Assembly (NCBI RefSeq): GCF_017348835.2 | Contig: NZ_CP071375.1 | DNA from: Escherichia coli | GTDB taxonomy: Bacteria > Pseudomonadota > Gammaproteobacteria > Enterobacterales > Enterobacteriaceae | Strand: one strand, 5' to 3' | DNA length: 64,000 bases | Shown here: positions 30,301 to 33,300 of the stretch, piece after piece | Layout of the letters: the number at the start of each line of letters is the position of its first letter | How positions within the stretch are numbered: position 1 is the first letter of the stretch | Made by a program: the position numbers

Positions 30301-33300
30301 AGAAGTTGATATGGGGACTGATACTAAAAAATATGCCGGCAAAGAACGCGCCAATAGCATAGCCAAAAGATCCCCAGGCGCGCGCTGTTCCATATTCGAA
30401 ATGAAAATTTCGCGCCATTTTTTCGGTGAAGCTGTCAAGCAAACCGCATCCCGCCAGATACCCCAAGCCAAAAAAGAGCGCCCCCAGAATTAGACCTACA
30501 GAAAAATTGCTTTGCAGTAACGGTTCATAAACGTAAATCATAAACGGTCCGGTCAAGACCAGGATGAAACTCATACACCAGATGAGCGGTTTCTTCAGAC
30601 CGAGTTTATCCTGAACGATGCCGTAGAACATCATAAATAGAATGCTGGTAAACTGGTTGACCGAATAAAGTGTACCTAATTCCGTCCCTGTCAACCCTAG
30701 ATGTCCTTTCAGCCAAATAGCGTATAACGACCACCACAGCGACCAGGAAATAAAAAAGAGAAATGAGTAACTGGATGCAAAACGATAGTACGCATTTCTG
30801 AATGGAATATTCAGTGCCATAATTACCTGCCTGTCGTTAAAAAATTCACGTCCTATTTAGAGATAAGAGCGACTTCGCCGTTTACTTCTCACTATTCCAG
30901 TTCTTGTCGACATGGCAGCGCTGTCATTGCCCCTTTCGCCGTTACTGCAAGCGCTCCGCAACGTTGAGCGAGATCGATAATTCGTCGCATTTCTCTCTCA
31001 TCTGTAGATAATCCCGTAGAGGACAGACCTGTGAGTAACCCGGCAACGAACGCATCTCCCGCCCCCGTGCTATCGACACAATTCACAGACATTCCAGCAA
31101 AATGAACCGCCCCGGAAATCCTGGAGACTAAACTCCCTGAGAAAGAGGTAAACAGGATGACTAAAAATACTCGTTTTTCCCCCGAAGTCCGTCAGCGGGC
31201 GATTCGTATGGTTCTGGAAAGTCAGGATGAATATGACTCACAGTGGGCGGCAATTTGTTCCATTGCCCCAAAGATTGGCTGTACGCCGGAGACTCTGCGT
31301 GTCTGGGTTCGCCAGCATGAGCGGGATACCGGGAGTGGTGATGGTGGACTCACCACCGCTGAACGTCAGCGTCTGAAAGAGCTGGAACGTGAAAATCGTG
31401 AACTGCGCCGCAGTAACGATATCCTTCGCCAGGCTTCCGCTTATTTTGCGAAGGCGGAGTTCGACCGCCTCTGGAAAAAATAATGCCACTGCTGGATAAG
31501 CTGCGTGAGCAGTACGGGGTCGGACCGGTATGCAGCGAACTGCATATTGCCCCGTCAACGTATTACCATTGTCAGCAACAGCGACATCATCCGGATAAAC
31601 GCAGTGCCCGTGCGCAGCACGATGACTGGCTGAAGAAAGAGATACAGCGCGTATACGATGAAAATCACCAGGTATACGGTGTGCGTAAAGTCTGGCGTCA
31701 GTTGTTACGGGAAGGTATCAGAGTGGCCAGATGCACTGTGGCACGTCTCATGGCAGTTATGGGACTTGCCGGTGTTCTCCGGGGTAAAAAGGTCCGCACT
31801 ACCGTCAGCCGGAAAGCCGTTGCCGCATGCGACCGCGTAAACCGTCAGTTCGTGGCAGAACGTCCAGACCAGTTGTGGGTGGCTGATTTTACCTGGGTAA
31901 GCACATGGCAGGGCTTCGTTTATGTGGCGTTCATCATTGATGTGTTCGCCGGATACATCGTGGGATGGCAGGTCTCATCATCCATGGAAACAACATTCGT
32001 GCTGGATGCACTGGAGCAGGCGTTGTGGGCCCGTCGGCCGTCCGGCACAATCCATCACAGTGATAAAGGTTCTCAGTATGTATCGCTGGCCTACACGCAG
32101 CGGCTTAAGGAAGCCGGATTACTGGCATCAACAGGGAGTACTGGCGACTCGTATGACAACGCGATGGCTGAGAGCATCAATGGTCTTTACAAAGCGGAGG
32201 TAATACACCGTAAGAGCTGGAAAAACCGTGCAGAAGTGGAACTGGCCACACTAACGTGGGTGGACTGGTATAACAATCGACGATTGCTGGAAAGGCTGGG
32301 CCATATTCCTCCGGCAGAAGCAGAAAAAGCTTATTATGCTTCCATCGGAAATAATGATCTGGCAGCCTGAGTTCACAGATAAAACACTCTCCAGGAAACC
32401 CGGGGCGGTTCAAAATGGTGAACTTGTCCTCGATAACAGACCACCACCCCTTCTGCACCTTTAGTCACCAACAGCATGGCGATCTCATACTCTTTTGCCA
32501 GGGCGCATATATCCCGATCGTTCTGTGTTTTTCCACTGATAAGTCGCCATTCTTCTTCCGAGAGCTTGACGACATCCGCCAGTTGTAGCGCCTGCCGCAA
32601 ACACAAGCGGAGCAAATGCTCGTCTTGCCATAGATCTTCACGAATATTGGGATCGAAGCTGACAAAACCTCCGGCATGCCGGATCGCCGTCATCGCAGTA
32701 AATGCGCTGGTACGCGAAGGCTCGGCAGACAACGCAATTGAACAGAGATGTAACCATTCGCCATGTCGCCAGCAGGGCAAGTCTGTCGTCTCTAAAAAAA
32801 GATCGGCACTGGGGCGAACCATAAACGTAAATGAACGTTCCCCTTGATCGTTCAGATCGACAAGCACCGTGGATGTCCGGTGCCATTCATCTTGCTTCAG
32901 ATACGTGATATCGACTCCCTCAGTTAGCAGAGTTCTTTGCATTAACGCACCAAAAGGATCATCACCGACCCGACCTATAAACCCACTTATTCCGCCTAAT
33001 CTGGCGATTCCCACCGCAACGTTAGCTGGCGCGCCGCCAGGACAAGGCAGTAGGCGCCCGTCTGATTCTGGCAAGAGATCTACTACCGCATCCCCTAAAA
33101 CCCATACTTTGGCTGACATTTTTTTCCCTTAAATTCATCTGACTTACGCATAGTGATAAACCTCTTTTTCGCAAAATCGTCATGGATTTACTAAAACATG
33201 CATATTCGATCACAAAATGTCATGGTTAACGTTAACATTTGTGATATTCATCGCATTTATGAAAGTAAGGGACTTTATTTTTATAAAAGTTAACGTTAAC

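Follow-up and report, generated by a model that had tools for sequence, protein, structure and literature searches.

An insertion sequence of the IS629/IS1203 type splits the fructokinase gene cscK of the csc sucrose locus in the stretch of Escherichia coli DNA analysed here (the window, 64 kb in all). The reading that we favour, with a probability of about 0.85, is that a recent hit by such an element turned cscK into a null allele and probably entails a polar loss of cscB, the gene for the sucrose permease. The window displays 4 mismatches in 64 kb to the chromosome of E. coli PE164, an O108:H9 strain from a piglet, and the IS at this site is 100% identical to that of PE164. The allele is already annotated, as an IS and a split pseudogene, in RefSeq NZ_CP114128.1. 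The paper on PE164 (PMC12233904) mentions neither sucrose nor IS elements, and no description of the site, cscK nt 705–707, in an O108:H9 aEPEC/ExPEC hybrid was found in the literature searched.

The earlier note, made from the same DNA, had described a complete IS629/IS1203-like element of 1310 bp with both terminal repeats, a 3-bp flanking duplication, intact OrfA and OrfB and a frameshift window. All of these parts were recovered, the outer bounds at exactly the positions proposed:

31103..32412, plus strand: complete IS629/IS1203-type element (IS3 family), 1,310 bp
31103..31127, plus strand: left terminal inverted repeat (IRL), 25 nt, first letters TG
32388..32412, plus strand: right terminal inverted repeat (IRR), 25 nt, last letters CA
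31100..31102: left copy of the target-site duplication, AAA
32413..32415: right copy of the target-site duplication, AAA
31157..31483, plus strand: orfA, 108 aa, DNA-binding portion of the transposase with HTH_Tnp_1 (Pfam PF01527, scored on the fused protein)
31483..32370, plus strand: orfB, 295 aa, in the −1 frame, with HTH_21 and the rve DDE catalytic core
31438..31554, plus strand: −1 frameshift region, ALIL pseudoknot (Rfam RF01497)

The length of the element and its imperfect TG…CA repeats are those of the IS3 family (1.2–1.5 kb). The two 25-nt repeats, which read TGAACCG…CGGTTCA, are complementary at 22 of 25 positions (88%). AAA abuts the element on both flanks and is present as one set in the empty site, the uninterrupted allele containing AAAA versus 4 + 3 A residues in the window; the duplication is therefore 3 bp, within the 3–4 bp typical of the family. 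The element is single-copy within the 64-kb window, and its transposase genes lie on the plus strand, antisense to cscK and cscB.

Both transposase ORFs are open. The ATG of orfB overlaps the stop codon of orfA (TAA, 31481–31483), and a slippery run of six A residues (31475–31480) is located inside the ALIL pseudoknot, which matched the full length of the RF01497 model at 120.3 bits (gathering score 50, E=1e-30). Two ORFs in the 0 and −1 frames combined with a frameshift signal are the arrangement expected of an IS3-family element; the frameshifting itself is predicted, and would generate a fused OrfAB of 404 aa. The PGAP annotation of PE164 contains the same frameshift feature together with a joined CDS of 1,214 nt. 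The N-terminal part of the NCBIfam IS3 profile matches the orfA product, and OrfB scored 312.6 bits against NCBIfam NF033516 (cutoff 160), with Pfam matches to rve (8.8e-25), HTH_21 and rve_3. The DD(35)E+K signature can be read directly in OrfB (D…D-35-E-7-K, WVADF…HSDKG…AESINGLYK), and the element thus encodes both the DDE core and the N-terminal helix-turn-helix of IS3-family transposases. No stop codon interrupts orfB, and a second PE164 copy encodes the identical protein.

The isoform threshold of ISfinder is set at about 95% identity. Comparison with copies of IS629 and IS1203, which the earlier note had called for, gave 96.0% identity to the Sakai element and 99.4% to that of phage BP-4795, measured against depositor- or PGAP-named copies, and places the element in the IS629/IS1203 type. 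The IS629/IS1203 of Sakai, an O157:H7 strain, shares with the cscK copy the length of 1,310 bp without indels, the termini, the orfA/orfB layout, the ALIL pseudoknot and the 3–4-bp duplications, but differs by 52 substitutions that change 2 aa in OrfA and 9 in OrfB. The IS of the Stx1 phage BP-4795 (AJ556162), named IS629 by its depositor, differs by only 8 nt, and copies in many non-O157 STEC (chromosomes of the O103, O121 and O145 type, and plasmids), in F2_81 and in PE164 are 99.2–99.9% identical. The cscK copy belongs to the same sub-variant as the IS629 of BP-4795 and non-O157 STEC, with at most 1–3 private or rare substitutions. With respect to nomenclature, IS629 is described as a member of the IS51 subgroup of the IS3 family (PMC10758439). 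One Sakai copy bears both labels, ‘IS1203’ and ‘IS629 transposase OrfB’; in PGAP annotations the O157 type is called ‘IS3-like element IS1203 family transposase’ and the PE164-type variant only ‘IS3 family transposase’.

The element interrupts cscK at codon 236 (nt 705–707), leaving two fragments:

32413..33119, minus strand: cscK 5′ fragment, codons 1–236
30892..31102, minus strand: cscK 3′ fragment, codons 236/237–304, containing the PfkB DSTGAGD motif

The 5′ ORF continues past the junction to a stop at 32373, so that 236 native residues are followed by 12 encoded by the IS, and the GAGD motif (residue 248) is cut off from the N-terminal domain of CscK. The coding sequence is accordingly discontinuous, and PE164 is annotated with two pseudogene fragments. 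On what is established for this family, cscK here is a null allele, since the N-terminal 236 residues are parted from the C-terminal 68 that carry GAGD. As had been claimed, removal of the IS restores a continuous ribokinase-family frame. When 30892..31102 is joined to 32416..33119, with one AAA removed, the resulting 915 bp constitute a single 304-aa ORF that reads …GQVHHF/AGMSVNCVD… across the junction. The rejoined gene matches the allele of F2_81 at 100% identity and differs from an intact cscK by 7 substitutions, with 0 gaps and 1 aa change. Its 304-aa product scored 505.7 bits against the NCBIfam fructokinase model NF006957 (cutoff 450), which makes it a member of that equivalog. The join originally put forward, 30892..31102 plus 32413..33119, likewise gives a continuous frame but keeps both AAA copies, and hence encodes 305 aa with an extra Phe (…HHFFAG…).

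The proposal that the insertion is recent, and the element probably still mobile, is well supported by comparison with other genomes, because an empty site exists in F2_81, the junction is unique and PE164 contains near-identical copies. The pig strain F2_81 has an uninterrupted csc locus with exactly the empty site, which aligns to the IS-free sequence as a single 3,883-bp piece at 100% identity; the flanks of PE164 and F2_81 differ by 4 SNPs in 24 kb. Of 5,426 complete genomes, one contained the left IS-cscK junction, and PE164 alone had the identical right junction. In the PE164 chromosome this IS occupies about 31 places. A second chromosomal copy is 1 synonymous nt apart and has the same transposase accession, and a plasmid copy is 3 nt apart from the one in cscK. 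The alignment of an F2_81 prophage IS ran on for 15 bp into what looked like cscK flank, but this was a partial match due to chance. Other readings would be that the insertion is an old one passed down within the lineage, of which it would then be a marker, or that it is an artefact from assembling a genome rich in repeats, as some 31 copies of an element can confuse assemblers and PE164 was sequenced as a hybrid Unicycler assembly (PMC12233904). An artefact, however, would not make a target duplication, and here the 3-bp duplication is clean and flank continuity perfect. The flanks are, in addition, 100% identical to those of the empty-site relative, and the junction is absent from the other 5,425 genomes. 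Antiquity or misassembly is thus largely refuted and highly improbable. Taken together, these data show that an autonomous IS629-type element transposed recently into cscK at codon 236, either in PE164 itself or in a direct forebear, and generated the 3-bp duplication.

The consequences for sucrose use depend on the surrounding locus:

29057..29128: argW tRNA
29573..30820, minus strand: cscB, sucrose permease, intact, 415 aa (TIGR00882, 593 bits)
33120..33334, unstranded: cscK-cscA intergenic region with bidirectional promoters controlled by CscR and cAMP-CRP (location per PMC3938415, PMC11251922)
33335..34768, plus strand: cscA, invertase, intact
34776..35771, minus strand: cscR, LacI-family repressor, intact

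The synteny is that of a csc locus, with cscB-cscK, cscA and cscR beside argW and a truncated dsdX-dsdA. In agreement with the earlier note, cscA and cscB are full-length, and cscB lies 3′ of cscK in the same orientation; PE164 and F2_81 share one protein accession for its product. The insertion leaves the cscK-cscA intergenic region untouched and identical to F2_81.

Polar loss of the permease is the likeliest consequence of the insertion, judging from the operon structure. An IS in an upstream gene of an operon is classically strongly polar. In the gal and lac mutations caused by IS1, IS2 and IS3, a promoter-proximal IS is known to end translation, and the untranslated RNA cuts distal expression; for cscK, in contrast to these classical cases, polarity is predicted. 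The cscKB genes form one operon with cscB immediately 3′ of cscK, transcribed from a promoter between cscK and cscA, and the only genes listed as essential are cscB and cscA (PMC3938415); operon structure and essentiality are also supported by PMC6599523. A transcript initiated at this promoter would be translated until 40 nt into the IS. Beyond that point about 1.55 kb of the RNA, made up of antisense IS and the cscK tail, would go untranslated before cscB is reached, the gene starting 1,552 nt past the new stop codon. The antisense IS RNA contains more C than G over most of its length, compatible with Rho loading, and Rho-dependent termination would confer strong transcriptional polarity of the classical kind. 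The predicted result is less sucrose permease and less csc-dependent sucrose use, with occasional revertants arising through precise excision, a loss of 1,313 bp that would restore …CAAAATGG…. The IS-interrupted cscK/cscB of Shigella and E. coli and the scrY::IS3 alleles present the same IS inactivation of sucrose operons, with predicted polarity and Suc+ revertants; scrY::IS3 strains of phylogroup F E. coli are Suc− and revert late (PMC11251922). In CC119 STEC it is a cscB defect, rather than a cscK defect, that decides the phenotype (PMC10132054).

It is conceivable, although unlikely, that the insertion is near-silent for sucrose use. In that case enough transcription for cscB would come through the antisense IS, or from a weak cryptic promoter situated at the left end of the IS or in the tail of cscK, and a different hexokinase would take over from CscK. 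The dispensability of CscK fits its absence from the genes listed as essential, and loss of cscK alone did not stop sucrose fermentation in CC119 revertants (PMC10132054). Read-through would be eased on the minus strand within the IS, where the search for a strong intrinsic terminator returned none and only two weak candidates with 5-bp stems. As to a cryptic promoter, a lenient scan gave weak minus-strand matches at 31035–31008 and 30918–30891, but such matches facing cscB occur at background frequency (about 4.9/kb versus 6.8/kb window-wide). A strict scan of 29500–33400 returned 0 sites, and neither scan gave a convincing promoter facing cscB. The strict scan missed the native csc promoters too, and with consensus scans this insensitive cscB may still be served by a weak promoter, cryptic or directed outward from the IS. 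Transcription that exits the IS along the transposase genes would head to cscA, away from cscB, and no documentation of an orientation dependence of IS629 polarity was found in the literature searched. The 1,552 nt of untranslated RNA, the strength of classical IS polarity and the Suc− phenotype of scrY::IS3 strains before reversion all argue against near-silence and for polar loss of cscB. The phenotypic contrast of PE164 on sucrose may nevertheless be small, because slow growth or no growth on sucrose is seen in many E. coli whose csc locus is intact (PMC11251922).

In other genomes the cscK/cscB locus has taken at least 12 more IS629-type insertions, independent of one another and in both orientations, which map to different positions and have different duplications:

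O157:H7 NE92 group: IS629-type event in the csc locus, duplication CTTT
SMN197SH3: IS629-type event, duplication CTC
2014C-3011 group: IS629-type event 7 bp from the PE164 site
O39:NM, MA11, EPSSH018, strain 142 and Al Ain: IS629-type events in the csc locus
Res13: IS629-type event, duplication AAC
CEC13091: IS629-type event in the csc promoter region
O111:H8: IS629-type event downstream of cscB, duplication GGC

Four independent events cluster in cscK nt ~625–707, within about 85 bp, and in Shigella cscK/cscB are usually IS-interrupted (PMC11251922). The PE164 insertion could therefore be one case of selected convergent csc loss in pathogenic lineages rich in IS629, or of an IS629 target preference for cscKB there. 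This is improbable, however, as an IS629-type element lies in or beside cscKB in only 24 of ~2,645 csc-bearing complete genomes, and the events occur in both orientations and are spread across the whole locus. Moreover, some csc insertions are expected by chance because the strains affected carry 15–40 copies of the element each. More doubtful still is the general proposition that cscKB, and especially cscK nt ~625–707, is a preferred IS629 target, or that csc-mediated sucrose uptake has repeatedly been selected against in aEPEC, STEC and Shigella; were it true, the PE164 insertion would represent convergent pathway decay, not a random hit. An antisense orientation bias, apparent in all 8 events of a first query, was abandoned when a flipped-IS control query gave 9 more genomes with the opposite orientation; the bias was suspected to be a detection artefact, alignment pieces having been joined on one strand only. 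Shared ancestry with the 2014C-3011 group, whose right junction aligned at 95.5% in one piece, was rejected, as that junction is 7 bp off and the IS there has been truncated, with a prophage gene fused to it. The tir-allele paper (PMC10758439) was found to contain no description of an O157:H7 cscK::IS1203 allele.

The evidence for the IS629-type hit in cscK is clean and the hit genuine, but it is an ordinary event, because elements of this common and probably still active E. coli type have struck the same locus in numerous further strains. IS disruption of cscK/cscB has already been published for Shigella (PMC11251922), and the PE164 allele has little import beyond strain-level annotation. PE164 is predicted to differ from the near-identical F2_81 in csc-dependent sucrose use, with possible effects on differential media based on sucrose, and the two strains provide a handy natural pair in which IS629 polarity and excision can be measured. 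The repeated IS629-type hits in cscK/cscB are a modest addition to the published decay of csc in IS-rich lineages.

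The fructokinase gene cscK, part of the sucrose (csc) locus, is interrupted by a complete insertion sequence (IS). The element and the features around it are arranged as follows.

31103..32412, IS629/IS1203-type element, 1,310 bp, beginning TGAACCGCCCCGG… and ending …CCGGGGCGGTTCA
31100-31102 and 32413-32415, target duplication AAA, on both flanks of the element
31157..31483, + strand, orfA, 108 aa
31475-31480, + strand, A6 run immediately before the orfA stop
31483..32370, + strand, orfB, 295 aa, in the -1 frame, its ATG overlapping the orfA stop as TAATG
33119..32413, - strand, 5' part of cscK (codons 1-236), PfkB-family kinase
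31102..30892, - strand, remainder of cscK
29057..29128, argW tRNA-Arg
29341..29493, DUF4942 remnant
36002..36220 and 36238..37566, dsdX 3' remnant and intact dsdA, with dsdC absent

The terminal inverted repeats of the element are 25 nt long, with 22/25 positions matching, and the target duplication is 3 bp, as uninterrupted alleles contain AAAA compared with 4+3 A's in the window. The 117 nt around the A6 run match the full Rfam model of the ALIL pseudoknot at 120.3 bits (gathering score 50), while OrfB scores 312.6 bits against an NCBIfam IS3-family transposase model (cutoff 160). Conceptual OrfAB, of 404 aa, comprises HTH_Tnp_1, HTH_21 and rve domains, and the DD(35)E+K signature is legible in the transposase (WVADF…HSDKG…AESINGLYK). 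These data bear out the description in an earlier note of a complete IS with intact repeats, ORFs, frameshift signal and 3-bp duplication; it is the only copy in the 64-kb window.

IS629 is an IS3-family element of the IS51 subgroup (PMC10758439). The closest copy named by a depositor, the ‘IS629' of Stx1 phage BP-4795, is 99.4% identical to the cscK element (8 nt), whereas the O157:H7 Sakai element is 96.0% identical; it is free of indels but carries 52 substitutions, and its proteins differ at 2 + 9 amino acids. A single Sakai record labels its copy both ‘IS1203' and ‘IS629 transposase OrfB', and PGAP names the O157 type ‘IS3-like element IS1203 family transposase' but the cscK variant only ‘IS3 family transposase'. 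In view of these identities and labels the previously proposed name, IS629/IS1203-like, is fair. More precisely, the cscK element is the IS629 sub-variant frequent on non-O157 STEC/aEPEC chromosomes and plasmids.

Removal of the IS and one AAA (30892..31102 joined to 32416..33119) yields 915 bp containing one 304-aa ORF (…GQVHHF|AGMSVNCVD…), which matches NF006957, the fructokinase equivalog of NCBIfam, at 505.7 bits (cutoff 450) and differs from one intact cscK by seven substitutions, one amino-acid change and no gaps. The continuous kinase frame predicted earlier is thus restored, although the join originally proposed, 31102 to 32413, contains a trivial slip: it retains both AAA copies and so adds an in-frame Phe. 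In the interrupted gene, translation continues through 12 codons of IS sequence to a stop at 32373. The DSTGAGD motif (GAGD at residue 248), which is required for catalysis in ribokinase/PfkB kinases, lies in the severed C-terminal fragment and, by established knowledge of these kinases, the interrupted cscK is therefore a null allele.

The window corresponds to the chromosome of PE164 (NZ_CP114128.1, 1398522-1462521, reverse strand), with four mismatches over 64 kb at 11087, 11476, 18525 and 54537 (A/A/C/A in the window, G/G/T/G in the record), the last of which also differs from the near-identical pig strain F2_81. A sister isolate, or a different version of the assembly, may be the source of the window. 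PE164 is an O108:H9 hybrid aEPEC/ExPEC isolated from a piglet (PMC12233904). In RefSeq its locus is already shown as two kinase pseudogene fragments separated by a transposase of the IS3 family, for which a programmed frameshift is annotated.

In junction-specific queries of complete genomes, the left IS-cscK junction was found in one piece in 1/5,426, and the identical right junction in PE164 only. The empty-site query (cscB, rejoined cscK and cscA; 3,883 bp) matched F2_81 in a single piece at 100%. As no more than four SNPs separate F2_81 from the window across 24 kb of flanking sequence, and the two have protein accessions of nearly all neighbouring genes in common, the insertion is younger than the split of these strains. 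Around 31 places in PE164 match the element; one other chromosomal copy is a single synonymous base from the cscK copy and encodes an identical transposase (WP_394814037.1), and the plasmid copy is 3 nt away from it. Combined with the intactness of its ends, ORFs and frameshift signal, these data make it a well-supported inference, as the earlier note held, that the element is recent and probably still mobile.

F2_81 carries a lambdoid prophage integrated at argW (L008 1..19544) that PE164 and the window lack, and its homology with the window breaks at 29117, within the 3' end of the tRNA. This prophage holds an IS629-type copy that lies ∼13 kb away from cscK and departs from the cscK element at only 3 nt. 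The flanks of this prophage copy (CTT / GTT) form no duplication, suggesting later rearrangement. The remainder of the window is standard E. coli core (pdxB…fabB…yfc fimbriae…fadJI…fadL…mlaA…argW | csc | dsdA…emrYK…evgAS…oxc/frc…ypdABC…fryC). The dsdX remnant and missing dsdC represent the known replacement of dsdC/dsdX by csc genes, under which sucrose use and D-serine use exclude each other.

In E. coli W and EC3132 cscK and cscB form one operon, with cscB directly downstream, expressed from a bidirectional promoter region between cscK and cscA controlled by CscR and cAMP-CRP; growth on sucrose requires cscB as well as cscA (PMC3938415, PMC6599523). In the window the element lies antisense to the cscKB operon. 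The cscKB transcript would shed ribosomes 40 nt inside the IS, leaving 1,552 nt of untranslated RNA to cross before cscB. The antisense IS RNA has C > G along most of its length, compatible with Rho loading, and that strand has only two hairpin-plus-T candidates, both weak. Across 29500..33400 a simple terminator scan gave 13 hairpin-plus-T sites, where shuffled sequence leads one to expect 4.8 ± 1.9; the majority are minus-strand sites within cscB, and the excess is probably compositional (cscB is a T-rich membrane-protein gene). A strict sigma-70 scan of 29500-33400 returned no promoter, missing the native csc promoters as well, and a lenient scan between the IS and cscB gave background-level matches only. 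As transcription out of the IS along its own genes runs toward cscA, away from cscB, it cannot rescue the permease. The best-supported mechanism, which we infer for PE164, is a cscK null allele with strong predicted polarity on cscB.

Such polarity would make csc-dependent sucrose use poor or delayed, with revertants arising through precise excision. Analogous published cases agree with this reading: strains with scrY::IS3 are Suc- until revertants arise late (PMC11251922), and the phenotype of CC119 STEC is set by the defect in cscB rather than by that in cscK (PMC10132054). An IS-excision enhancer is known to stimulate IS629 excision (PMC9330008). As growth on sucrose is slow or absent in many csc-positive E. 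coli despite intact loci (PMC11251922), the contrast caused by the PE164 insertion may be modest.

The csc locus is present in ∼2,645/5,426 complete genomes, 24 of which have an IS629-type element in or adjoining cscKB (15 oriented as in PE164, 9 opposite). An apparent orientation bias was an artefact of the joining of alignment pieces and disappeared in a flipped-IS control. At least 12 further independent IS629/IS1203-type events, in both orientations, affect cscK, cscB, the promoter region or the DNA just downstream (loci L002, L004, L005, L006, L007, L010 and L017-L020), including the following.

O157:H7 NE92 group: cscK, with a CTTT duplication
SMN197SH3: duplication CTC, 3 bp away from the insertion point of the NE92 group
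2014C-3011 and others (four strains): the IS, whose end lies 7 bp away from the PE164 insertion point, is truncated and joined to a replication gene of a lambdoid prophage, and cscB is missing
O39:NM: cscK nt ∼245, IS fused to prophage DNA
MA11: 3' end of cscK
Res13 (duplication AAC), EPSSH018, strain 142 and Al Ain: cscB, at four positions
CEC13091: promoter region between cscK and cscA
O111:H8: duplication GGC, downstream of cscB, which is frameshifted

Four of these events share a stretch of ∼85 bp in cscK (nt ∼625-707), and one of the four is just 7 bp distant from the insertion in PE164. In the 2014C-3011 group, SMN197SH3 and O39:NM (L004 3141..4100, L005 2468..3427, L007 3501..4810) the cscK IS adjoins a truncated lambdoid prophage replication gene, which stands where the rest of cscK and cscB would be; this arrangement indicates a deletion or recombination event, mediated by the IS, that involved the csc locus and the argW prophage. 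In O111:H8 strain 8B (L003 4386..6620) cscB is frameshifted, cscK has an internal stop and IS1203 lies downstream of cscB, the locus decaying also by routes other than IS. In Shigella, cscK and cscB are reported to be interrupted by IS elements as a rule (PMC11251922).

The structural observation is confirmed in all details, and its original interpretation was sound. The insertion is an ordinary one: the IS is known and abundant, the accessory gene that it entered is known too, the public PE164 genome already carries an annotation of the allele, and IS decay of the csc locus has already been published.
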